Positions 39,567 through 51,552 of a stretch of 51,552 bases of DNA are shown in pieces. A program made the position numbers and the translations under genes. The first letter of the stretch is position 1, and each line of letters starts with the position of its first letter. This DNA is from an uncultured Clostridia bacterium (GTDB taxonomy: Bacteria; Bacillota; Clostridia; Christensenellales; UBA1242), in the NCBI GenBank assembly GCA_944381235.1, contig CALWKI010000042.1, positions 1 through 51,552 of the forward strand. Direction: 5' to 3'. The notes beneath the pieces were generated by a model. It worked only from the letters and a program-made list of their open reading frames with translations, was not told where the DNA came from and did not search any database.

Positions 39567-40853
39567 TCACTTGTCAAACAAATTTAAATAAAGTTGTTCA
39601 ATAGATAAGTCAAAATCTTCTTCTTTAATCCCAATTATCACACTTATATCGCTAGTACTTTTTGTTATAAATAAAATCTCAAAATTAATTTTAGAAAGAG
39701 CATCAAAAACTTTATCTTGCCAAATTTTATACTCGTTAAAACAACTATCAAATATTGTCACTAACGCCACTTTTTGAGTACTTACTTTAACACCTATATT
39801 ACAATTAATCTTATCTATTTTATCTTCTAGATTGTCACCAAGATTTACCACAAAAGAAATGCTATCAATCCCTTCAATTATCTTTTGAATTTTACAAGGA
39901 ATACTTTCTATAAAATTTTTCAAATCTTCTATTTTGCCTCTACTTTGAGCTATTAAATCACCTTCAAAATTTATAAGTAAATAGCCTTTTTTGCCTGTAA
40001 TCGAACGCGCATAAGGTTTTGGCTCATTTGACACCATCGTACCGGGGTCTAACAAGTTGAAAGTATTTCTTATATTTAAAACTATATTATTTGATTCAAG
40101 AAAATCACTGCAATCAGGATGCAAAACCCCTGCTCCAAGGCTTGACATTTTTCGCATCTCACTAAAACTAAGACGCCTTAAAAGTTTTGCTTTCTTACAT
40201 TTATTTGGATCGACATCATAAACACCGTCCACGTCAGTAAAATTCTCGTAGACACTACTATCTGATAAAACTGCAATAATTGCTCCAGTTAAGTCTGACC
40301 CTCCACGTGAAAATGTTTTTATATTTCCAGTTGTGTCTATACCGTAAAACCCGGGAATTACATATCTTACATCCTCGTCTATTATCTTGTTAAACATCTT
40401 TTTTGACAAAGACAGGTCAACTTTTCCGTCTTTATCAAAAAAAATAATGTCTTTTGCGTCTAAAAACTTAAAACCAAGATAACACGACGCAATTTTGGCG
40501 TTTAAAAATTCACCTCTAGATAAAACGTAATCATAACTCGTATGTAATTTTATTTCTCTGTTTATTTCATCTAAATATGGTTTTAAGTCAAGATTTATAT
40601 TTAGATCTTTTACTAGTCCCACAAACCTATCCACTATCAAACCAAATTCTTTTTCATAGTTTTCATTTTTACTTGATAAACTAAAACAATCAATCAAAAG
40701 ATCAGTTATTTTTTTGTCCTCTTTATACCTTTTCCCCGGAGCTGACACAACGACAAAACGCCTATTTTTATCCTTTAATATATCCGCCACCGTTTGAAAC
40801 GCACTTGCATCGGCTAGTGAAGAGCCACCAAATTTACATACAATACTATTCAT
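39567..40853 (-). CDS. Aspartate kinase
   Basis: KFGGSSLAD, VVVSAPGKR, TFSRGGSDLTG, TDVDG; start placed at the ATG 40853. Confidence 0.93.
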   Translation of the reverse strand: MNSIVCKFGGSSLADASAFQTVADILKDKNRRFVVVSAPGKRYKEDKKITDLLIDCFSLSSKNENYEKEFGLIVDRFVGLVKDLNINLDLKPYLDEINREIKLHTSYDYVLSRGEFLNAKIASCYLGFKFLDAKDIIFFDKDGKVDLSLSKKMFNKIIDEDVRYVIPGFYGIDTTGNIKTFSRGGSDLTGAIIAVLSDSSVYENFTDVDGVYDVDPNKCKKAKLLRRLSFSEMRKMSSLGAGVLHPDCSDFLESNNIVLNIRNTFNLLDPGTMVSNEPKPYARSITGKKGYLLINFEGDLIAQSRGKIEDLKNFIESIPCKIQKIIEGIDSISFVVNLGDNLEDKIDKINCNIGVKVSTQKVALVTIFDSCFNEYKIWQDKVFDALSKINFEILFITKSTSDISVIIGIKEEDFDLSIEQLYLNLFDK

Positions 40854-40893
40854 CCTTACCTCTTTTTTTTGTCTAAAAGTACTATATGCGCTG

Positions 40894-41649
40894 TTACTCA
40901 AAAAGGTTTTTCATAGAATAAAGCCCCGGTTTTTTATTTACTAAAAATTTTAATACCTTTAGTGCCCCCTCTCCAAAGACCTCACGGGACAAAGCCGTAT
41001 GAGTTATAGTTAAAATTTCATTATTTCCTAAAAACTGTACAGTATGTTCACCTCTCACCCCGCCACCTCGAATAGAATGTACACCAATTTCTCTTGAGTC
41101 TCTTACCCCTTCTCGCCCCCTACCAAGATTAATAATCGCATTTGGTCTTGTTTTCTTTAGTTCTTTTAGTATCATTGAAGCACTACCACTTGGCACATCA
41201 ATTTTTTTGTTGTGATGAGTTTCAACCACCTCTATGTCATAATTATCTAATCTTTTTGACGCAAAATGCGTGAGTTCTAACATTGTTTGCATACCCAAAC
41301 TAAAATTACCAGACTTAAAAATTGGAATAACTAAACTTGCACGCTCTATTTCTTTTTCTTGAATAAGGTTATGTCCAGTTGAAGCAATAACTAGTGGTTT
41401 ATGATTTTTAACGCAATAGTTTAGTATCGGAATTAATGCGTCTGCTCGCGAAAAATCAAGCACAATGTCACAGTCTTTTATACTAAAAATGTTGTCTGTC
41501 AACTTGACTCCCTCTACTTCATTTTGTACTCTAGCAATTTTAGAACTTTTATCCACCCCATATTTTATATCTATATCACTATCATTTTTTGCTAAATTAT
41601 AGACAACTTGTCCCATTTTTCCACAGAACCCATTTAACGCTACCTTCAA
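40894..41649 (-). CDS. dapB: 4-hydroxy-tetrahydrodipicolinate reductase
   Basis: GFCGKMG, ETHHNKKIDVPSG, HSIRGG. Confidence 0.96.
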   Translation of the reverse strand: MKVALNGFCGKMGQVVYNLAKNDSDIDIKYGVDKSSKIARVQNEVEGVKLTDNIFSIKDCDIVLDFSRADALIPILNYCVKNHKPLVIASTGHNLIQEKEIERASLVIPIFKSGNFSLGMQTMLELTHFASKRLDNYDIEVVETHHNKKIDVPSGSASMILKELKKTRPNAIINLGRGREGVRDSREIGVHSIRGGGVRGEHTVQFLGNNEILTITHTALSREVFGEGALKVLKFLVNKKPGLYSMKNLFE

Positions 41650-41785
41650 CTTTTCCTCCTTTATGCTTGTCTAAAAAATACCACTAAGTAAACTCTTCTT
41701 AAAAGTTTACAGAAGAGTTTACCTTTTTCAATTAAAAGATTTAAATTGCTTAGTCACCAATAGTTTGTTCTGACTACTTAATCTT

Positions 41786-42664
41786 TTAATTATAAAATTC
41801 AAACATCGCTTTCTTTAGTATTTCCTCGTTTTCTTTTTCTAGTTTTGTTAATGGTAGACGTACAGAGTTTTCACAAAGATTCATAACTTCGCAGGCATAT
41901 TTAACAGGAATAGGATTTACCTCAATAAACATATCTTTATTGATTTCATCCAATTTTTCTTGCAGTCTCCTTGCCTCGTCATACTCTTTTTTAAGACTTT
42001 TATGAACAACTTCGTTTACTTCTCTTGGAAAAACATTTGCCGTTACACTTATACATCCAGATGCACCCAGTGTCATAAAAACATAATTTAAACTATCTTC
42101 GCCTGAGTAGACGGCCATTTTACCACGAAGCAAACTACACGTCCTCATTATTTGATTTATGCTACCATTTGCCTCTTTTATTCCACAAATATTTGGAATC
42201 TCACTTAGTTTTTGGGCAGTTTCTGGCAAAACATTAACTCCAGTTCTACTTGGAACGTTATAGACAATAACAGGAATACTTACGCTTTCACAAATTTTTG
42301 TGTAATGTTCTATAAGTCCAATCTGCGTACATTTGTTATAATATGGAGTAACAATAAGCAGCGCGTCTGCACCCAAACTTTCAGCCCTTTTACTGTCAAG
42401 TATAGTTTTTTTAGTACTATTGCTACCTGTTCCAACAATTAAAGGAACTTTGCCGTTTATTTTACTTTTAGCAAATGTTATTATGCTTTCTTTTTCTTCT
42501 TCACTTAAAGTTGATGGCTCACCCGTCGTACCAAGAACGACAATAGCATCCGTTCTATTTGCAAGTTGAAAATCAATTAAGCGTCCAAGGCTTTCATAAT
42601 CTACCTTATCATTTTTAAAAGGAGTAACAAGCGCAACGCAACTACCTATAAAAACAGTTTTCAT
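41786..42664 (-). CDS. dapA: 4-hydroxy-tetrahydrodipicolinate synthase
   Basis: GTTGE, PYYNK, YNVPSRTG, GIKEA. Confidence 0.97.
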   Translation of the reverse strand: MKTVFIGSCVALVTPFKNDKVDYESLGRLIDFQLANRTDAIVVLGTTGEPSTLSEEEKESIITFAKSKINGKVPLIVGTGSNSTKKTILDSKRAESLGADALLIVTPYYNKCTQIGLIEHYTKICESVSIPVIVYNVPSRTGVNVLPETAQKLSEIPNICGIKEANGSINQIMRTCSLLRGKMAVYSGEDSLNYVFMTLGASGCISVTANVFPREVNEVVHKSLKKEYDEARRLQEKLDEINKDMFIEVNPIPVKYACEVMNLCENSVRLPLTKLEKENEEILKKAMFEFYN

Positions 42665-42668
42665 TCCG

Positions 42669-43667
42669 TCATCTTCCCTCCTTCTTATACTCTAAGAGAC
42701 ACTCAAGAATTTGTACGGCATTTGTCGCGGCTCCCTTTCTAATGTTATCAGCAACAACCCAAATATTAAGCCCATTTTTAACAGTCTCATCTCTTCTTAT
42801 TCTACCTACAAAAACCTTATCTTGCCCGTCTACATTACAAGGCATAGGATAAAGGTTGTTTCTTATGTCATCTAACACAACCAAATTATCCATTTCTTCA
42901 AAATCACGTCTAATTTGGTCAATATCAAACTCTTTTTCAAGTTCAACATTTACACTTTCACTATGAACATTAAAAACAGGGACTCTAACCGTTGTCGCAG
43001 TTACAAGTATACTTTCATCATGCAAAATCTTTTTTGTCTCAAAACTCATTTTTTCTTCTTCACGCGTATACCCATTTTCCAAAAAATCATCAATGTGAGG
43101 TATTACATTTGAAAAAATTTGATGCACGAATTTTTTTGGTGGAATAGATTTCATGCCTTCATTTAAATCGTCACACCCTTTTTGCCCTGCACCAGATACA
43201 GCCTGATAAGTTGACACAACAACTCGTTTAACTTTATATTTATCATTTAGTACCTTAAGTGGCAAAACCATTTGAATTGTCGAACAGTTTGGGTTTGAAA
43301 TAATACCATGATGATTTAAAATATCTTCTTTATTTACTTCAGGCACAACAAGAGGAACCTCTGTGTCTCGCCTAAAAGCACTAGAGTTATCAATTACTAC
43401 CGCCCCATAACGAGCAAAAATAGGTGCAAATTCTTTAGAAATTGTGCCACCAGCCGAAAATAGAGCGTAGTCTATTCTTTTGTCTTTTATATTTTTCTCG
43501 TTTAGTTCAAGTATAGAATATTCTTTATCAAAAACTTTTATTTGTCGCCCAGCGCTTTTTTTACTCGCATACAAATAAAAGTTATCTGCTTTGATACCTC
43601 TTTCTTCTAAAACCTCAATAAACTTATTTCCTACCTTTCCAGTAGCGCCAACAATAGCAATATTCAT
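42669..43667 (-). CDS. asd: Aspartate-semialdehyde dehydrogenase
   Basis: VGATG, IDNSSAFR, NPNCST, DNIRKGAATN. Confidence 0.97.
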   Translation of the reverse strand: MNIAIVGATGKVGNKFIEVLEERGIKADNFYLYASKKSAGRQIKVFDKEYSILELNEKNIKDKRIDYALFSAGGTISKEFAPIFARYGAVVIDNSSAFRRDTEVPLVVPEVNKEDILNHHGIISNPNCSTIQMVLPLKVLNDKYKVKRVVVSTYQAVSGAGQKGCDDLNEGMKSIPPKKFVHQIFSNVIPHIDDFLENGYTREEEKMSFETKKILHDESILVTATTVRVPVFNVHSESVNVELEKEFDIDQIRRDFEEMDNLVVLDDIRNNLYPMPCNVDGQDKVFVGRIRRDETVKNGLNIWVVADNIRKGAATNAVQILECLLEYKKEGR

Positions 43668-43748
43668 CTTTTCTTCTCCAATTATATTTAGGTCAATAAA
43701 AGCCTACCCCACCAAAAGACTATATTCTATTTTGGCAACAACTTGTTA

Positions 43749-45089
43749 CTAGTTGTTATTAAAAAAGTTTTTTAAACCATTTGATAAATTAATAAATTTT
43801 GAATAACTTACCCTCTCATTTACAGTATTTTCTGCATAGACTGGAAGCGAAAGTAGTGAAACATCCAATTTTTTAATTTCATTTTGAAATATCCCACCTT
43901 CGCTTATTCCCTTATACATCTTATTTTTTGAGTTTAAAAAATTAAAAGTTTTTAGTAAATTATTTGTTACACCCAAGTCTTCATATGAACTAAAGTTTGG
44001 ATAAATTGACTTTACCGCACAAGAATAATTATTTTTCTTGCATGCCCCCTCAATATTGTCATATTGTCTTTTTGCCTCTTTTTCATCATCAGCCATGATT
44101 GTAAAATTTATAAGTCCCGTGTCACTATCTATACCTTTCAAGGTTTGGCAAAGAAATTCGTCTTCATAATCTCGAAGTACGCCTTGTTTAAACTCGTCAA
44201 TAAAAATTAGAACCGACGTGTTACTTAAAACCAAACTATTTGTAATTTGTCTAGAACATTTAAGAAAAATTTTTGGATAAGTCTTTTTTTGTTCAATATA
44301 AAAAAACTTTATAATTCGCTTTAATTCCCTTTCGCTTGTTAATGTTGAAAAAACAACTTCGTTTTTTAAAACAAAGTCTTTAACAATACAAAATGACATT
44401 TTATTTATGTATAAATGAGGTATTTTTCTTAGTAATAAACTTACAACATCCACATAAATATTTTTATTTGGTACATAAGGTAAATTATTTATGCTTAATT
44501 TAAATGTCTTAAGATTTATATCATTTTTTAAAAAAATTTTTTCGTTATTAAACTTTATAACCCCGTCAATGCCATAACAACTTTTATTGTAAATATTATC
44601 TGTTTCATCCGTTTCAAAACAAATCATCCGTTTTGAAGAGATTTTTTTATGTTCAATTTGTCTAGCACCTAGCATGTTATTATACTTTAAAGAGGTAAAT
44701 ATTCCTTCAATATTAATAGGAAGTCCCGAGTCCAAAAGTTCTAAAATAAGCGACATACCAATAGCACTTCCTGCACCAAAAGAACTATCTTTTGCCTGCA
44801 AGAAGTCACCTTTTTTAATTAAACAAATACTATTTTTTAAAGAAAAATCAACTCTAGATTTAGGTGTTTTTACACAAAACATATCAATATTTGTTTGAAA
44901 AGCAATACTAGGCTCGCTCGAATCATTTTTGTAAATGATAACATTATTATATTCGTCAGTATAATATTTAAGATTCCTTGAATTTGCAAATTCTATTAAA
45001 TAATCGCACGTAGCCTTTTCCGTTTGACGCGGGAGACTCACTATTTCATTTAAAAAATCCATCGCACTTTTGCTTGTGTAACTTAACAT
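43749..45089 (-). CDS. PepD (M20C dipeptidase)-like protein with substituted metal ligands
   Basis: SLPR, DYLIEFA, TDEYNNVII, FQTNIDMFCVK, SSFGAGSAIG, EGIFT resemble the PepD N-terminus; start uncertain (45089 or 45122). Confidence 0.7.
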   Translation of the reverse strand: MLSYTSKSAMDFLNEIVSLPRQTEKATCDYLIEFANSRNLKYYTDEYNNVIIYKNDSSEPSIAFQTNIDMFCVKTPKSRVDFSLKNSICLIKKGDFLQAKDSSFGAGSAIGMSLILELLDSGLPINIEGIFTSLKYNNMLGARQIEHKKISSKRMICFETDETDNIYNKSCYGIDGVIKFNNEKIFLKNDINLKTFKLSINNLPYVPNKNIYVDVVSLLLRKIPHLYINKMSFCIVKDFVLKNEVVFSTLTSERELKRIIKFFYIEQKKTYPKIFLKCSRQITNSLVLSNTSVLIFIDEFKQGVLRDYEDEFLCQTLKGIDSDTGLINFTIMADDEKEAKRQYDNIEGACKKNNYSCAVKSIYPNFSSYEDLGVTNNLLKTFNFLNSKNKMYKGISEGGIFQNEIKKLDVSLLSLPVYAENTVNERVSYSKFINLSNGLKNFFNNN

Positions 45090-45280
45090 AGACCCCTCAT
45101 AAATAAATAAATAATGATACAAAAAAAGGTAATGATCTCTATAGTATTTTATATCATTACCAGTTTTTTATCAAGTATATTAAATTATTAAATAACATTT
45201 TTTATTTAAACGAAAAAAGAAGAGAAGAAAAATTCTCCTCTTAAAATATTTTTGCAAAAAAACAAAATGAAGCAAATTAA

Positions 45281-45478
45281 TTATTTGCTTTCTTTTTCTT
45301 TTTGATGAATAGCAACAACTTCCTTACCATCATAGTATCCGCACTCACTACAAACTGTGTGTGGACGCACCATTGCCTTACAATGAGGGCACTCAACAAG
45401 CGTTGGATTAACTGCCTTCCAATTTGCTTTTCTACTATCTCTTCTTGCTTTACTAACTTTTCTTTTTGGTACTGCCAT
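45281..45478 (-). CDS. rpmF: 50S ribosomal protein L32 (zinc-ribbon form)
   Basis: MAVPKRKVSKARRD, CPHC/CSEC. Confidence 0.98.
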   Translation of the reverse strand: MAVPKRKVSKARRDSRKANWKAVNPTLVECPHCKAMVRPHTVCSECGYYDGKEVVAIHQKEKESK

Positions 45479-45482
45479 TTTT

Positions 45483-45998
45483 CTACTCTCCCCTAACTTC
45501 TTTTATTTTGCCAAATGGATTCTCTTCTTTCCTCTCTATCTCGTCTAAATTACTTTCACAATTACACTTTTGGTAATTTTTATTTTTTCCGCAAACACTA
45601 CAAAGCCCTTTGCAATCTTCACGACATAAAACCCGAGATGAAAGATTAAGTAGTAAGTTGTCTGACACAGCCTCGTCAATATTAATGCCTGCCTGATTAA
45701 TCAAATAGTCTTCCACATTATGAGAATTATAATTTTCAACAAACTCCTCGTCTATTTTAAATTTAAATTCCCTTTCAAACACCTCACCACAATTATCACA
45801 CATACATTGCAATCTACAACTAGCATCGGCTGACAAGTTTAATTTTTCATTTTGGTAAAAGAAACTGCCCTTTACTCGCACTGGAGTTAAAAGTTTAATG
45901 TTTCTTGTGTCAAGTAAATCTTGCTCAAGTCTACAATCTACTTCAAAACTTTGCTTTTCCCCAGGTTTTGCCTTTGCTCTCATTATATTTAACAACAT
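45483..45998 (-). CDS. YceD/DUF177 family protein
   Basis: CDNC, LCREDCKGLCSVCG; upstream of rpmF. Confidence 0.92.
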   Translation of the reverse strand: MLLNIMRAKAKPGEKQSFEVDCRLEQDLLDTRNIKLLTPVRVKGSFFYQNEKLNLSADASCRLQCMCDNCGEVFEREFKFKIDEEFVENYNSHNVEDYLINQAGINIDEAVSDNLLLNLSSRVLCREDCKGLCSVCGKNKNYQKCNCESNLDEIERKEENPFGKIKEVRGE

Positions 45999-46059
45999 AG
46001 CAATAATATTATATTTACTTTGACTATATTTGTCAATGCTTTTAAAATTCTTTTTTGTT

Positions 46060-46287
46060 TTATTTTTTTATAATTTCTTCGACCTCAAACCCAAGGGTAT
46101 TGATTGCGTCAATTATCACTCTGTCCTCTATTTCTTTTTTGGAAGATAGAAAGGCGTTTTTATTTTCGAGGCTAACAACCACATCTGTGACGCCCTTTAT
46201 GTCCTTTAATTTATTTGTAACTCTACTAACACACCCCATACAATGCATGCCTGAAATTTTAATTTCCTTTTTAAATTCATCTTTCAT
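46060..46287 (-). CDS. copZ: CopZ-like heavy-metal chaperone (HMA domain)
   Basis: GMHCMGC; start moved to the ATG 46287 behind AGGAG. Confidence 0.85.
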   Translation of the reverse strand: MKDEFKKEIKISGMHCMGCVSRVTNKLKDIKGVTDVVVSLENKNAFLSSKKEIEDRVIIDAINTLGFEVEEIIKK

Positions 46288-46300
46288 CTTTTTTACTCCT

Positions 46301-48496
46301 CTATTTTTTAAGTCTAAGCGCATTTAATACAACTGTCAAACTACTTAAAACCATTGCTATGCCAGCTATCATTGGATTTATTATAACCCCTATAAAACTA
46401 AACGCTCCAGTTGCAATGGGTACCATAAGCGTGTTATAGAAAAACGCCCAAAAGAGATTTTGTTTTATATTTTTTATTGTGCGTTTACCAATGTCAAGTA
46501 AATCACCAATTCTTGTCAAATTATCATTCATAAGCACAACGTCGCTTGAGGACATTGCAATATCTGTGCCATTACTAACACTAACTCCTATGTCTGCACT
46601 CGCTAGTGCTGGGCTATCATTTATCCCGTCTCCGCACATTAATACATGTTTACTTTCTTTTTTTAGTTTACCAATTATTTTGCTTTTTTCACTTGGTAAA
46701 ACCCCTGCGTAAACGGTTTTAATATTAAGTTCATGCGCAATACTTTCCGCAACCTCTTTTGAGTCGCCGGACAAAAGCACCACCTCAATATTTTTATTTT
46801 GTAACTTTTTTACAATTTCTTTGGCGTCATCTTTTATAATATCACTTACCACATAAAGCCCAACAAGTTCGTTTTCGACCGCAACATACACTATACTCCC
46901 AAGCGCACCTATTTCTTTTTCAATGTTAGGTTGTTTATTTTTTACCTTAAATTTACTAAGAATTTTATTGTTTCCACAAATTATTGTTTTGTTCTGAATC
47001 TTACCTATAATTCCCATACCGTTTATATTTTTAAAGTCATCTACTTGAAACGCCTCCACTTTTTCTTCACTTGCCCTTTGAGAAAACGCATTTTTTATTG
47101 GATGAGTAGAAAGCGCCTCAAGACTATAAACATATTTGATTATTTCTTTTTCGTTTAATCCCGCGCTAAAATTTATAAACTTTGCAATTTTTAGATTGCC
47201 GTATGTAAGCGTTCCAGTTTTATCAAAGACTACAGTATCAATTTTACTTGCTATTTCAAGCGTCTCACTATTTTTTACAAGAATTCCTTTTGAGGCGCAC
47301 TTTCCAACACTAATTACAATCGCAAGCGGAGTTGATAAACCTAAAGCACACGGACACGCAACCACAAGCACCGTTACAAAAAAATTAAGTGCTACGTTGA
47401 ATCCCATACCTAAACACAAATAAACAATAAATGTTACAAGAGCAATTCCCATAACACAAGGAACAAAAATACCACTTACTTTATCTGCTAATTTTGATAT
47501 TTTCATTTTGGTATTTGTCGCCTCAACGACTAGTCTCACAATCTCAGAAACTGTAGAGTCTCGACCAATTTTTTCAGCCTCATATTCAATGTAACCATCA
47601 AAATTAATACTTCCCGCAACAACCTTATCTCCTTGCACCTTTTTAACGGGCATACTTTCGCCAGTAATAAATGCCTCGTCAATATGAGTACTCCCATTAA
47701 TTATTATCCCGTCAACTGCAATTTTTTCTCCTGGTCTACAAATTAACGTGTCCCCTTTTTGTATTTCGTCTATACTAACCTCTTTTTCTTCTGCACCGAC
47801 CTTTAAACGCGCTATATTTGGGGTTATTTGTACAAGTTTTTTTATTGCCTCTCTTGTTTTATCTTTGTTTGTCTTATCAATAAAGCGACCCAGTTTTATA
47901 AAATAAATAATTATGGCACACGACTCAAAATAAAGATTATGTACAGAACTAGTCTTGCCTAGCATTACCATAACAAAAGAATAGATACTGTAACCAAGAC
48001 TACTCGTTACACCAAGTGCAACAAGGGTATCCATATTTGGCACACCAAGAAATAAACTTTTTATACCATTTTTTATAATATCAAATCCGTAAACTAAAAA
48101 TGGCACGACAAGAACAAGTAACACTATTGAATATGTTTTTGGATTAATATTGTAGTCTAAAAATCGTGGCAAAGGCACCCCAAACATACTAAACATAGAA
48201 ACATACAAAACAATAACAGCAAGTATAGAAAAAATGATAAAGAATATTTTTTCTTTACTTCTCCTTTTCTCTTCTTTTAGTTTGTATATGCCGGTGCTTT
48301 TAAACCCAACGTCATTTATAAATTTTTCAATTTTTGATTTATCAAGTTTTGTTTCATCATAGTCAATAGTTGCATTTGCCATAACAAGATTAACGTTAAT
48401 ATCAATTATCCCGTCTTGCTTCTTTAGGTATTTTTCAATCCCTTGTGAACATGCACTACAACTCATGCCGTCAATACCAAGAATTATTCTCTTCAT
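46301..48496 (-). CDS. copA: Cu(I)-translocating P1B-type ATPase
   Basis: GMSCSAC, TGES, CPC, DKTGT, GDGIND, FFYN and MVLSS TM motifs. Confidence 0.93.
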   Translation of the reverse strand: MKRIILGIDGMSCSACSQGIEKYLKKQDGIIDINVNLVMANATIDYDETKLDKSKIEKFINDVGFKSTGIYKLKEEKRRSKEKIFFIIFSILAVIVLYVSMFSMFGVPLPRFLDYNINPKTYSIVLLVLVVPFLVYGFDIIKNGIKSLFLGVPNMDTLVALGVTSSLGYSIYSFVMVMLGKTSSVHNLYFESCAIIIYFIKLGRFIDKTNKDKTREAIKKLVQITPNIARLKVGAEEKEVSIDEIQKGDTLICRPGEKIAVDGIIINGSTHIDEAFITGESMPVKKVQGDKVVAGSINFDGYIEYEAEKIGRDSTVSEIVRLVVEATNTKMKISKLADKVSGIFVPCVMGIALVTFIVYLCLGMGFNVALNFFVTVLVVACPCALGLSTPLAIVISVGKCASKGILVKNSETLEIASKIDTVVFDKTGTLTYGNLKIAKFINFSAGLNEKEIIKYVYSLEALSTHPIKNAFSQRASEEKVEAFQVDDFKNINGMGIIGKIQNKTIICGNNKILSKFKVKNKQPNIEKEIGALGSIVYVAVENELVGLYVVSDIIKDDAKEIVKKLQNKNIEVVLLSGDSKEVAESIAHELNIKTVYAGVLPSEKSKIIGKLKKESKHVLMCGDGINDSPALASADIGVSVSNGTDIAMSSSDVVLMNDNLTRIGDLLDIGKRTIKNIKQNLFWAFFYNTLMVPIATGAFSFIGVIINPMIAGIAMVLSSLTVVLNALRLKK

Positions 48497-48748
48497 TATA
48501 ACCTCAAGGTTTATTATATTTTATTTTACATAAAAAAGTAAAATATTTTATAAAATAATTGTGGCAAAAAATCTTTTTTACAATAATCATCTCAAAAATT
48601 TATGTGACTCCCACTGAAAAAAGTATAGTTTAAAAAAATAAAGAAAAGGAGGTTAAAGACAATGAGAGATTGTTTACACAATCTCTCGGTCGACAAATTC
48701 AATTTTCAAGCAGTCCGTAAAGTGTGTAAAATGACCAAAAAAAGATAA

Positions 48749-48773
48749 AACCCGCTTTGAATAAAAGCGGGTT
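48749..48773 (-). terminator. Intrinsic terminator downstream of the tRNA-Tyr 3' end
   Basis: Perfect 10-bp stem AACCCGCTTT/AAAGCGGGTT followed on the minus strand by TTATCTTTTTTT. Confidence 0.75.
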
Positions 48774-48797
48774 ATCTAAAAAGTCGCATTGACGCGC

Positions 48798-48850
48798 TGG
48801 TGGGCAGGGATGGATTCGAACCATCGAAGGCTCAGCCGACGGATTTACAG
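48798..48850 (-). pseudogene. 3' fragment of tRNA-Tyr(GTA); prophage attachment site
   Basis: Minus strand CTGTAAA-TCCGT-CGGCTGAGCC-TTC-GATGGTTCGAATCCATC-CCTGCCC-ACCA gives anticodon loop, long variable arm, T-arm, acceptor 3' strand and CCA; the 5' half (GGGCAGG..., D-arm) is absent. Confidence 0.9.
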
Positions 48851-48932
48851 GCTTAACCTCAAAATCGAAAAAATTAATATATACTTTTATTTTAAAGGAA
48901 ATTAAAAGATTAAAAGAATTATTTATTTTCAC

Positions 48933-48954
48933 TTGACCCAAAATTTGACCCAAA
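48933..48954. repeat. Tandem 10-bp direct repeat, candidate integrase arm-type sites
   Basis: TTGACCCAAA at 48933-48942 and 48945-48954 (12-bp period), about 80 bp inside the att junction. Confidence 0.65.
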
Positions 48955-48964
48955 TTAAAATACA

Positions 48965-48995
48965 AAAAAAATAACTGGTATTCAGTTATTTTTTT
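48965..48995 (-). terminator. Hairpin overlapping the rep stop codon
   Basis: Perfect 13-bp inverted repeat AAAAAAATAACTG/CAGTTATTTTTTT with 5-nt loop. Confidence 0.55.
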
Positions 48996-49993
48996 AATGT
49001 ATAGATATAGGCTTTGTCGGTTTCTTTAAAGTGAATATAGTTAAGTAGACTAACCGAATTTAAAAAGTTTTGTTTTTCCTCGTCAGTGTAGTATGAAACT
49101 AGTTTATTATAAAAGTCCAAATTATTTGTATGCCAATATGTTTTTTTCTTAAAAGATACTTTGACATTATCTTTTAAAAAATACTTTGAAAGATAATTTG
49201 CAAGTTTGTCAGAGTTTGCGTCTTTTATTTTAACTATTGTTAAATGACCTTCTGAGTAAATTTTAGGGTCTATGTTATATACCGGGTCGTTAAATTCATT
49301 GACTAATTGTTGCATATAATATTTATTCGGTAATTTGTTGCCCTTTTTATCTTCATAGTACTCACCGGAATTAATAGCAATGCGAAGATATTTGTCAAGG
49401 TTGCAGTTACCAATAAGTCCGTGAAAATGTAAACCGCCTTTTTTATGATGTTCCCTAACACATATTATTTTTATATTTGGGAACCTATATTGCATTTTTT
49501 GTCTAAAAAGTTTCCAAACATAATTGACTTGTTCTTCTGATAGCTTGTCCTTTTTTGCCAAAGTTAAAGTCAAAAAGTAAGACCAATCATTACAGCGAGT
49601 ATAACCATAAAAATTTTGAGTTGCTCGTTTACGGGAATCTTTTAAACAATTCAGCAATTTAAAAATATCGCCATTTAGATTTTTCTCAGTTGGGACAAGA
49701 ACGCCATGGTCGTCATACATCCAATTTTTGCCTCTATCTACATTTATATTTACGTCCATTGTACCACGTTGCCAAAAGGCATCTTTAAAGATAAGCACTT
49801 CTCGAGTATTTTTATACTCATTTATGACAACGTTTGCTTTACAATCTTTTACATATGGGCATTTAAGATAATTTGGACAACTAAATTGACGTTTTACATT
49901 CAAACAAAATTCGCAAAGTTCTTTTGTTTGATACTTTTTTATAGGAGATAAATCTATCTCTTTCATATCATTTTGATTAAATCCGTTAGACAT
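48986..49993 (-). CDS. HUH-superfamily rolling-circle replication initiator (Rep)
   Basis: Motif I YFLTLT, motif II REHHKKGGLHFHGLI, motif III LANYLSKYFLK (two Tyr); GAGGAG RBS. Confidence 0.9.
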   Translation of the reverse strand: MSNGFNQNDMKEIDLSPIKKYQTKELCEFCLNVKRQFSCPNYLKCPYVKDCKANVVINEYKNTREVLIFKDAFWQRGTMDVNINVDRGKNWMYDDHGVLVPTEKNLNGDIFKLLNCLKDSRKRATQNFYGYTRCNDWSYFLTLTLAKKDKLSEEQVNYVWKLFRQKMQYRFPNIKIICVREHHKKGGLHFHGLIGNCNLDKYLRIAINSGEYYEDKKGNKLPNKYYMQQLVNEFNDPVYNIDPKIYSEGHLTIVKIKDANSDKLANYLSKYFLKDNVKVSFKKKTYWHTNNLDFYNKLVSYYTDEEKQNFLNSVSLLNYIHFKETDKAYIYTLKK

Positions 49994-50026
49994 AGTTTAC
50001 TCCTCTTTTTAAAATTTTTCTGCTTA

Positions 50027-50057
50027 AGTGTCCCCATTATCAAGTAAAGGGGACACT
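50027..50057 (-). other. Predicted double-strand origin (nick-site hairpin)
   Basis: Minus strand AGTGTCCCC-TTTACTTGATAAT-GGGGACACT: perfect 9-bp stem with CTTGATA in the loop, 33 bp upstream of the rep ATG. Confidence 0.78.
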
Positions 50058-50067
50058 GTTTTTTTGT

Positions 50068-50339
50068 CCGTCAAGGCCCCGGGCGGGCAGAGCCTCGCCC
50101 GGTGGCCTCACTTATTTTTTTGTGCTGGGTAAGAGGCGAGACGTGATGTCGTCTTTCAGACTGATATCATTACTCGCTATTATTGTTTATCGGGCATTTA
50201 ATTTGACTAGTTCCCGTCAAGGACGCTAGCAAAATTAAAAGCCCGTCAGCGACGCTTAGCCTTTGCTCCCGGTCGTTCGCTTACGCTTCTGCGACCTAGT
50301 AGTCCCCTTTTTGTCTACTGCCCGTCTAAAAAGGGGACT
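50068..50339. other. GC-rich multi-hairpin intergenic region (candidate single-strand origin/packaging signal)
   Basis: Hairpins at 50074-50108, 50191-50245, 50271-50296 and 50301-50339. Confidence 0.6.
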
Positions 50340-50348
50340 TTAAAAAGG

Positions 50349-50588
50349 TTAGTATGCCCTTTTCTTCCCTCTTAATTTAGCAATCTTCTTTTTATATTCT
50401 GGTGAAAAAGTATAGAGCATTGCATACTCATAATTTCCATGTTCTTTGATTGCTTTTCGAATTTCTTTCTCGTCTCCAGTTCGTGTAGCCCTAACAAGAT
50501 TCCTTTCACTTTTAACATAAGCCTGTTCTAGGCTTTCCTTTGTATTATTAAGCGCAAGTTTTTTGTGTTTTCCTTTAAAGAATGACAT
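50349..50588 (-). CDS. Prophage hypothetical basic protein (79 aa)
   Basis: GGAGGTG RBS; 2-bp gap to the upstream ORF; no recognisable motif. Confidence 0.75.
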   Translation of the reverse strand: MSFFKGKHKKLALNNTKESLEQAYVKSERNLVRATRTGDEKEIRKAIKEHGNYEYAMLYTFSPEYKKKIAKLRGKKRAY

Positions 50589-50590
50589 TT

Positions 50591-50911
50591 TTATTTCACC
50601 TCCAGATTTTTATTTTCTTCTTTCTTCATTTTTTTTAATTTTTTTTGTTCTGCATTATATATTGGTCTAAGACCAGAAAAGTAAATTCTTAACTTTTGAA
50701 TCCAAGATAACTTTACTCCCATTTTTTCGAGAGTGAGTAAATAATATATATCTATTTCTTTTAATTTTTTCTTCAAGGACTTATAGATAGTCTTGTCAAG
50801 CTTGGCTAGATATACCTTATCTACATATCTTTCAGAGTCGAGTAAGTGTTGCCAAACTAAAAGATAACTATCTATTGTTTGTCCTAACAATTCATTTTTA
50901 ATGTATTCCAT
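50591..50911 (-). CDS. Prophage hypothetical protein (106 aa)
   Basis: AAGGAG RBS; ATG abuts the stop of the pI-like gene (TAAATG). Confidence 0.75.
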   Translation of the reverse strand: MEYIKNELLGQTIDSYLLVWQHLLDSERYVDKVYLAKLDKTIYKSLKKKLKEIDIYYLLTLEKMGVKLSWIQKLRIYFSGLRPIYNAEQKKLKKMKKEENKNLEVK

Positions 50912-51552
50912 TTATACTACACTCCTTTTTTGATAAAAATTTCTTGGCAATTCGTCGTCGTTATTCTCAAGATATTTAATATAACTTTCTATATTTTCTT
51001 CAAAAGGGATAGCCTCGATATAGTCAATATCTTCGTCAAAATGACCGGCGTAAAACTTAGGTTTGCAAGAAAAGGAATTATAGCAGTCAAAAACGTTATA
51101 GTCCGCTGTAATTTCTTTTTCCTCGTAACACTCTTTGTCTTTTCTGCCACTAGACATATATCTATCAAACAAATTACTATTATCAATTACCCTTACCTTC
51201 CACGTCATACCTTGTATATCACCGAATTTGTTATAGTGAATATCTAATTTTACTATTTCTATAAATTGGGCCAGTTCCCGAATATTAACGTCAATAAGCA
51301 TTGGACGTTGGGTATCAAGAAAAATCTCAAGATTATTATGTCTATGACTCTCGTACCAGCGAGACTGCCAGTCCGGAAAATATATCGACATTCGACTATT
51401 AAGATATTTTTGCGCTTCAGTTATGCCTATGACCTCATATGGCAAATTGTAATGAGTTTTCACAAACTTATTTGCAAAACCGAGTCTATACGGATTGATA
51501 ATTCTGTTATGTCTATCTCGATAACGAAAACGTCTAAAACTACAAGAATAAT
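50912..51552 (-). CDS. Zot/pI-like morphogenesis ATPase, 5'-truncated by the window edge
   Basis: Frame stays open upstream of the GTG at 51463 to the window end; VIGITEAQKYLNSR (Walker B region), HRHNNLEIFLDTQ, IDVNIRELA and CYNS match the Zot/pI pattern hhhDEAQ..fnsR / HRH....hhhhTQ / iD..iR / YdS. Confidence 0.78.
   Translation of the reverse strand, partial: YSCSFRRFRYRDRHNRIINPYRLGFANKFVKTHYNLPYEVIGITEAQKYLNSRMSIYFPDWQSRWYESHRHNNLEIFLDTQRPMLIDVNIRELAQFIEIVKLDIHYNKFGDIQGMTWKVRVIDNSNLFDRYMSSGRKDKECYEEKEITADYNVFDCYNSFSCKPKFYAGHFDEDIDYIEAIPFEENIESYIKYLENNDDELPRNFYQKRSVV

Follow-up and report, generated by a model that had tools for sequence, protein, structure and literature searches.

In the accessible text of Sugimoto et al. 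(2021), Firmicutes-targeted gut inoviruses form a 'Clade-1' with a stand-alone Zot domain and genomes of 5.6-9.4 kb, and one Firmicutes inovirus with a tyrosine recombinase sits at a tRNA 3' end (PMC8530359). The available parts of Burckhardt et al. (2023) report filaments of 6-10 nm imaged from Enterocloster cultures (PMC10061712), and the Roux et al. (2019) catalogue, in the portions consulted, names 60 inovirus species from Clostridia and accepts a pI ATPase as genuine if it has one or two transmembrane domains (TMDs) (PMC6813254, bioRxiv 548222). The pages consulted from the ICTV (the international body for virus taxonomy) describe Inoviridae as non-enveloped filaments with 5.5-10.6 kb of single-stranded DNA (ssDNA) and a Gram-negative host. 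We analysed a stretch of 51,552 nucleotides from an uncultured Clostridia bacterium (the window), which is the entire contig C42 of an assembly (G000) of 1.0 Mb in 76 contigs that is 92.5% complete. The window contains ~2.75 kb of an integrated element, for which the best reading is a temperate, rolling-circle, non-lytically exported, Tubulavirales-like element.

The contig stops where the window does, so no sequence to the right is available, and the other end of the element lies on other contigs. Host genes (lysine pathway, rpmF and a P1B-type metal ATPase) stop at position 48496. Read from the contig end, the minus strand then carries a 5'-open reading frame (ORF) of 212 amino acids (aa), ORF106, ORF79, a 355-bp spacer, a 335-aa Rep and a 54-bp match to tRNA-Tyr. 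The preliminary description of this DNA had claimed such a co-oriented block of a Zot/pI-like ATPase, two ORFs, a hairpin-rich region, an HUH Rep and a tRNA-Tyr fragment, and all five are present. The GC content of the element (32.2%) equals that of the host (32.9%).

The core of the attachment site at this end (attR; 48797-48850, minus strand) consists of the 3' 53 bp of tRNA-Tyr(GTA) plus one flanking base, and is identical at 54 of 54 bp to contig C48 of the same assembly (window 48797-48850 corresponding to C48:3835-3782). The intact tRNA-Tyr on C48 (3750-3834), the sole tRNA-Tyr found in the assembly by ARAGORN, is the last gene of a Pro-Met-Asp-Phe-Thr-Tyr cluster. The match between the two contigs begins at the first base of the anticodon loop, which is a usual crossover position of tyrosine integrases. 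Downstream of the tRNA, C48 encodes a convergent tyrosine integrase (PF00589, E 3e-16), open at the contig end, and this fragment retains the catalytic motifs. A tyrosine integrase and a complete tRNA-Tyr with the shared repeat had been predicted to lie to the right of the window; they do exist in the assembly, but the contig ends there and they are found on C48.

A tandem 10-bp repeat, TTTGGGTCAA twice, lies inside both arms in the same orientation relative to the element (window 48933-48954, minus strand; C48:3952, at the integrase end), and probably provides arm-type binding sites for the integrase. Elsewhere in the assembly the doublet occurs only at C29:860, also at an integrase end, with a degenerate copy at C64:528. 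The locus combines an intact tRNA at one end, its 3' duplicate at the other and an integrase beside the attachment site, presumably joined across contigs. We are highly confident that a Zot/rolling-circle element is integrated at tRNA-Tyr.

Contigs C55 and C72 each end in the same integrase N-terminus. Because the proteins of C55 match the left arm of an element in genome G014 (contig C10), which is also the best match to the Rep of the window, the likely order of the contigs is C48-C55-gap-C42. Homologues of the main-type structural genes described below are found on none of the assembled contigs of G000, so that roughly half of the element is missing.

The same assembly holds further related sequences. 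A second element lies at tRNA-Leu(TAA) (C29:1-1060, L017), with a 64-bp duplicate on C64 (33-96, L018). Its integrase fragment is 85% identical overall to that of C48; the first 42 residues are identical and the rest diverges. One genome thus carries two integrases that have their arm sites in common but differ in their core sites, and their near-identity probably explains the assembly breaks. Contig C72 (L052) is the left arm of another element, probably the tRNA-Leu one, with the integrase N-terminus, two helix-turn-helix (HTH) genes, a coiled-coil N-anchored protein and a 646-aa member of the p462 family with a signal peptide and two C-terminal transmembrane (TM) segments. Downstream of the tRNA-Leu duplicate, C64:434-574 (L018) is a degenerate integrase-side arm that resembles the scar of an older insertion, and C32:215-2555 (L054) encodes an HTH repressor and a third related tyrosine integrase, 54% identical to that of an element in genome G025 (contig C3). 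Just outside the attachment site of the window, a terminator-like host repeat (48715-48803) is 84-88% like sequences beside tmRNA and tRNA-Leu on C51.

The Rep gene (48986-49993, minus strand) is intact, has a ribosome-binding site (RBS) and encodes a rolling-circle initiator of the HUH type. Its product matches PF23343 (E 8.4e-14, 52.1 bits against a cut-off of 27.8) and phrog_3419 (E 2e-13), carries motifs I-III (FLTLT, HFHG and YLSKY), and is 60% identical to the Reps of the elements G014:C10 and G022:C13. The left arm of the G014 element also carries a second, truncated copy of the 5' part of rep, with 85% nucleotide identity (L020:4596-4790).

The non-coding spacer (49994-50348, minus strand) is rich in hairpins and may serve as origin, packaging signal or terminator. 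As ssDNA it folds at -71.8 kcal/mol (z -7.48), and none of 100 shuffles folds as well; an Rfam search gave only chance-level matches. Within the spacer, a palindrome with apical TACTTGATA (50027-50057, minus strand) is conserved: 43 bp are 88-98% identical in the elements of G014 and G022, and 73 bp are 86% identical in that of G025. The motif TACTTGAYA, with a background of 0.017 per strand-kb, occurs near rep on the sense strand in 10 of 21 loci with the Rep class of the window, never on the antisense strand, and in none of 48 loci with the other Rep class. We take the apex motif to resemble the CTTGATA nick site of pC194 and phiX174, and the palindrome is a candidate for the Rep nick site at the double-strand origin. 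Alternatively, it may be an operator over the rep promoter. This is a real alternative because TTGACA/TTGATA is also a -35 box and because the motif occurs seven times in the window.

The ORF at the contig end (50912-51552, minus strand) encodes the C-terminal 212 aa of a Zot/pI-fold ATPase of ~272 aa, and the ~60 N-terminal residues that include the Walker A motif lie beyond the contig end. Its only Pfam match is Zot (E 0.0034, 17.3 bits, below the cut-off of 20.3), and it matches PHROG 197 at E 8e-6 (a further comparison gave E 1e-7). A search for homologues returned 810 candidates, 784 of which are homologous; the best is P0001, a full-length protein of 272 aa whose residues 61-271 are 94% identical to the fragment. 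The predicted Walker A motif is borne out at residues 7-14 of P0001, and a GK[TS] motif lies within the first 30 aa of 97 of the 120 homologues listed. A predicted TM segment was not confirmed: in a hydropathy scan (Kyte-Doolittle, not TMHMM), none of the same 120 reaches 1.6 over 19 aa, the maximum being 1.37.

The best structural match of the AlphaFold model of P0001 (pLDDT 76.7) is Neisseria Zot (2r2a; Foldseek E 8e-9, Z 11.9, rmsd 3.4, 158 aligned residues). STIV B204 (Z 9.1), RecA (9.1), HerA (8.5), VirB4 (8.0) and TrwB (7.2) score lower. In BFVD the named top matches are Inoviridae Zot proteins, with ORF3 of Acholeplasma phage L2 at rank 6 (Foldseek E 2e-6). Given these matches and the lack of a predicted TM segment, we regard the ATPase as Zot-like and soluble. 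Together with the attachment site and the integrase, the Zot-fold ATPase rules out a plain rolling-circle plasmid. Cholera Zot has a C-terminal extension, of which this ATPase gives no sign, and nothing in the analysis suggests that it acts as a toxin. In IMG/VR, scans with the Rep and with the ATPase (as a fragment and as an alignment) brought up no relative, and the JGI metagenomes gave no near-identical full-length copy, the best match being 74% identical over a fragment.

The gene that begins right at the ATPase stop, ORF106 (50591-50911, minus strand), encodes a basic protein without a TM segment (maximum 19-residue hydropathy 0.77). It matches no named family in Pfam, PHROG or NCBIfam, and atlas searches with it and with p462 were uninformative. 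Of the 80 related loci in genomes, 79 have a homologue, and in all 78 loci with enough flank it is the next gene after the ATPase; we consider ORF106 a likely DNA- or membrane-binding partner of the ATPase that replaces its TM anchor. The neighbouring ORF79 (50349-50588, minus strand) encodes a small, basic, soluble accessory protein (21 K/R, 9 D/E) with no significant match in Pfam, PHROG or NCBIfam and with homologues at 31 of the 80 loci from genomes and at 18 of 36 from metagenomes. Both had been called orphans, which holds for the absence of a Pfam family but not for their conservation.

These genes also bear on whether the locus is a defective relic and the contig break a reflection of decay. 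A decayed sister element on C22 would fit such a history, as its ATPase remnant has a stop and its Rep is a remnant, and in sequencing run X1 the contig depth over the element is similar to that of the flank (a weak measure). The present copy points the other way: Rep, ORF79, ORF106 and the ATPase fragment are open, the first three with RBSs, the fragment has a full-length counterpart at 94% identity, the integrase keeps its catalytic motifs, and the arms and hairpin are intact. We therefore regard decay as very unlikely. Four chicken-gut runs of one study contain 34-75% of the sequence words (runs with small shares were left out), and the richest of them may be the source sample. Contigs of four runs show no attP or attB junction, but they are short and shallow and give no evidence of absence. 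The sister element (C22:552-1516, L019) also retains a remnant of the repeats of the large protein and an intact ORF79 homologue; its ATPase remnant is N-terminal, and its Rep remnant belongs to the other class.

We propose that the block is the attR arm of a temperate Zot-ATPase (Tubulavirales-like) element of ~12-14 kb. The C48 integrase would have recombined attP with tRNA-Tyr at its anticodon loop, so that one end keeps a complete tRNA and the window has its 3' half, if C48 and C42 are joined as we infer. Derepression, through an HTH repressor that is probably the one on C55, would lead to excision. The Rep would then nick the conserved hairpin upstream of rep and yield single-stranded circles of the coding strand, which the soluble ATPase and ORF106 may pump through the membrane without lysis. 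Judging from relatives, where alone such proteins are seen, small proteins with a single TM segment would form a sheath around the DNA, and large adhesin-like proteins with a coiled coil, Listeria-Bacteroides repeats and leucine-rich repeat (LRR)-like domains would form the tip. Taken as a whole, from the attR arm of a temperate Zot-ATPase element to filamentous extrusion, we give this proposal an even chance of being correct.

The ATPase is present in 13 of 28 genomes of the host genus, including that of the window. Of 173 candidate stretches from the GTDB collection, 158 have it. We kept 80 of these 158; they overlap with the genus set and include close kin, so the counts are not independent. 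The titles of the GTDB loci name mostly Clostridia or Christensenellales metagenome-assembled genomes from the gut, and one cultured isolate, Pumilibacter muris from mouse gut (L124). The closest complete relative is the G014:C10 element, with 14.2 kb between 48-bp tRNA-Asn repeats; it shares the hairpin, the Rep (60% identity), the ATPase (72%) and ORF106 (55%), and carries genes for single-TM proteins of 66 and 52 aa and for three large N-anchored proteins. The G025:C3 element has 12.5 kb and is bounded by a 28-bp tRNA-Glu repeat, and L139 (10.3 kb) lies in tRNA-Tyr within the same six-tRNA cluster as on C48.

In the main arrangement, the genes follow one another as a small soluble gene, the 66-aa TM gene, the 52-aa TM gene, p430, p171, the large protein, ATPase, ORF106, (ORF79) and Rep. 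Hidden Markov models (HMMs) detected, at the 80 loci, ORF106 in 79, the large N-anchored coiled-coil/repeat protein in 68, p171 in 48, p430 in 46, the 52-aa TM protein in 39, ORF79 in 31, the 66-aa TM protein in 26 and p462 in 16. Two PF23343 Rep classes (22 and 48 loci), serine recombinases (26), tyrosine integrases (17) and IS30-type transposases (9) were also found; all are lower bounds, since contig ends truncate many loci. Listeria-Bacteroides or BspA LRR repeats occur in the large proteins. The model of p430 has an LRR-like C-terminal solenoid (Z 6.6, middling) and no BFVD match at E <= 0.001, unlisted folds remaining possible. The p462 family (L124:8538-10004, alignment A3) has 1769 clusters at 50% identity (E <= 0.001) and no named domain. 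Upstream of the TM genes lies a gene of 100-120 aa, for which a label of 'single-stranded DNA-binding (SSB)-like' has no support from Pfam, NCBIfam or PDB sequences and rests on size and position.

The family could also be read as a non-viral, integrative rolling-circle element that moves by cell contact, with the ATPase as translocase and the large proteins as adhesins, or as a satellite that uses the coat of a helper. N-anchored adhesins with Listeria-Bacteroides and BspA-type repeats do resemble cell-surface proteins, the Rep (PF23343, Rep_1 or Viral_Rep), integrase and structural modules are freely swapped, and the recombinase is tyrosine or serine, or an IS30-type transposase lies nearby. 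However, the ATPase is Zot-like rather than TrwB-, VirB4- or TcpA-like, and no type IV secretion or relaxase-accessory family was recognised among the genes scanned. The gene order also parallels that of filamentous phages, in which a small soluble gene is followed by small TM genes, large anchored genes and the ATPase. On balance we find cell-contact transfer or a satellite life improbable. The ATPase-ORF106 core occurs with Viral_Rep plus helicase at L083 (by Pfam) and L068 (by eye), and with a pC194-type Rep_1 at L139.

In favour of extrusion, filaments have been imaged from Enterocloster cultures and a stand-alone Zot is reported for Firmicutes inoviruses. The host genome has three Mur ligase and two transpeptidase (penicillin-binding protein) matches over the cut-off, as expected of a walled cell, which favours extrusion over budding and fusion. 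The preliminary description had called the locus a filamentous prophage; an integrated rolling-circle/Zot element it is, but a filament is not established, because small single-TM genes are present in the closest complete relative and were not found in 12 of 52 relatives. These 52 loci have an upstream marker gene and enough flank; a free small-TM ORF was absent from 17, of which 5 have the 52-aa gene by HMM (a filter artefact). When these 12 loci, L130 and L139 were rescanned within element bounds set by hand, none of the 14 gave a free candidate, each having 0-3 candidates that overlap larger ORFs. Direct repeats were found for L139 and not for five other such loci that were checked.

Several of these observations weigh against a classical filament. 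The 14 loci without a small TM gene fall at seven places on a FastTree tree of the ATPase, among TM-bearing members. An essential major coat protein should not be lost again and again, so either a larger protein takes its place, or these members depend on a helper or are defective, or the particle differs from a classical filament. In the 66-aa protein a basic stretch precedes the TM segment (23 of 26) and the tail is acidic (21 of 26), a polarity opposite to that of Ff pVIII, which has an acidic N-terminus and a basic C-terminus. The main-type large proteins are N-anchored and have no C-terminal anchor, in contrast to pIII, which is anchored at its C-terminus. In addition, the ATPase family shows no TM segment, against the one or two that Roux et al. 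require, and the middle of the present copy is unassembled, its coat region not being among the contigs. No coat is detectable by profile in the family. The 52-aa protein, with an N-terminal TM segment and an amphipathic helix, does not show the pVIII polarity either, although in an inverted topology such proteins could wrap the DNA. The ATPase of the window branches deep with P0001, and since its nearest context-bearing relatives are of mixed type, its own structural module cannot be firmly assigned. The unusual kit of membrane proteins may thus belong to a particle other than a classical filament, and we see the case for a filamentous virion as about evenly balanced.

One such particle would be a capsid-less, membrane-enveloped vesicle, as in plasmaviruses or pleolipoviruses, with the same integration and replication. 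The large anchored proteins would then be spikes, the ATPase and ORF106 would load a budding vesicle, and small TM proteins would be optional. This fits the dispensable small TM genes and the near-constant large anchored proteins, as well as L2 ORF3, which lacks a predicted TM segment, follows large envelope genes and is the rank 6 structural match noted above. The alternative p462 family, with a signal peptide and C-terminal TM segments, is laid out like L2 ORF1, and in the circular bajarodino virus 12 (PQ006185) the ATPase (E 5e-42) and p462 (E 2e-137) occur together with an integrase, a small TM ORF being absent. However, for the L2 envelope proteins (ORF1, ORF13 and ORF14) the best hhalign result, p462 to ORF1 (four ORF1 sequences), has a probability of 21% at E 0.001 over 52 columns next to the TM segments, where TM-only noise reaches 23%, and the ATPase HMM matches L2 ORF3 at E 0.64. 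The p430 model matched no fusogen, only its LRR-like C-terminus finding a counterpart, the host makes peptidoglycan, and the scan of recurring genes recognised no lysin family. An enveloped particle is therefore unlikely in our view. We are equally doubtful of its extension to a widespread family of temperate, capsid-less, enveloped rolling-circle viruses of walled gut Clostridia, counterparts of pleolipoviruses and L2 so far filed as inoviruses on account of the Zot-like ATPase, with a constant ATPase-ORF106 core, interchangeable spike sets and no need of a small helical coat. A short FETDG-like motif before the C-terminal TM segments of p462 is common to L2 ORF1, at a noise-level score.

The part of the window before the element (39567-48496) holds ordinary host genes: aspartokinase, dapB, dapA, asd, a degenerate peptidase-like ORF, rpmF, a DUF177-like ORF, a metal chaperone and a P1B-type heavy-metal ATPase, of which the Pfam comparison covered the last.

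A single prophage arm adds little, because tRNA-integrated Zot/Rep elements in Clostridia are already published. The family matters more, as it is common in the host genus, departs from one published requirement for pI, and yielded no small single-TM coat gene in roughly one in four of the relatives checked. Should the latter still make particles, a Zot-like ATPase would be an unreliable marker of filamentous phages, and walled bacteria would host a second virion architecture. The question is directly testable, as the cultured Pumilibacter muris (CLA-AA-M08) carries a member without small TM genes. We found no description of the family in the accessible literature, a search that left subscription papers mostly outside.

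Going by the published descriptions open to us, the window's family resembles Clade-1, and especially Ino-06, in its stand-alone Zot, Rep, tyrosine recombinase, integration at a tRNA 3' end and Clostridiales hosts (PMC8530359). Clade-1 genomes, chosen because a major coat protein of Inoviridae was detectable in them, have 5.6-9.4 kb, whereas the present family has ~10-14 kb, no profile-detectable coat and two or three large membrane-anchored proteins. The Enterocloster inoviruses, as far as the consulted text describes them, share a Gram-positive anaerobic gut host, a pI homologue and a prophage flanked by direct repeats; they differ in size (mostly 6.5-8.5 kb, one of 16 kb) and in having imaged filaments, the window's family being known from its genes (PMC10061712). 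With the catalogue of Roux et al., in its accessible portions, the family shares a pI-like FtsK-HerA ATPase, a rolling-circle Rep and an attachment site in a tRNA, but not the one or two TMDs in pI (PMC6813254). Of the features used there, the ATPase has Zot as its nearest known domain and Walker A on P0001, a rolling-circle initiator is present, and single-TM proteins of 30-90 aa are found in the closest complete relative and not in 12 of 52 loci. The two complete relatives, of 12.5 and 14.2 kb, and the mostly Clostridia hosts named are also unlike the Inoviridae of the ICTV pages consulted.

Among the other systems compared, Acholeplasma phage L2 (Plasmaviridae, L13696) is similar in its ~12 kb, its tyrosine integrase and its structurally matching ATPase, which lacks a predicted TM segment and lies downstream of large membrane-anchored genes. 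Unlike our element, it has double-stranded DNA, no annotated HUH Rep, a wall-less host and structural genes without significant homology. The link to plasmaviruses is one of architecture and, for the ATPase only, of structure; when profiles of the structural genes were compared, scores stayed at noise level. Bajarodino virus 12 (deposited as Inovirus; circular, 9.8 kb, rodent faeces) shares a soluble ATPase (28% identity), p462, a tyrosine integrase and a repressor, but has no match to ORF106 or to the PF23343 Rep classes, no annotated Rep and no small TM ORF. The element in the window would work like a temperate filamentous phage, a kind already known in Clostridia, and should not be filed as Inoviridae proper.

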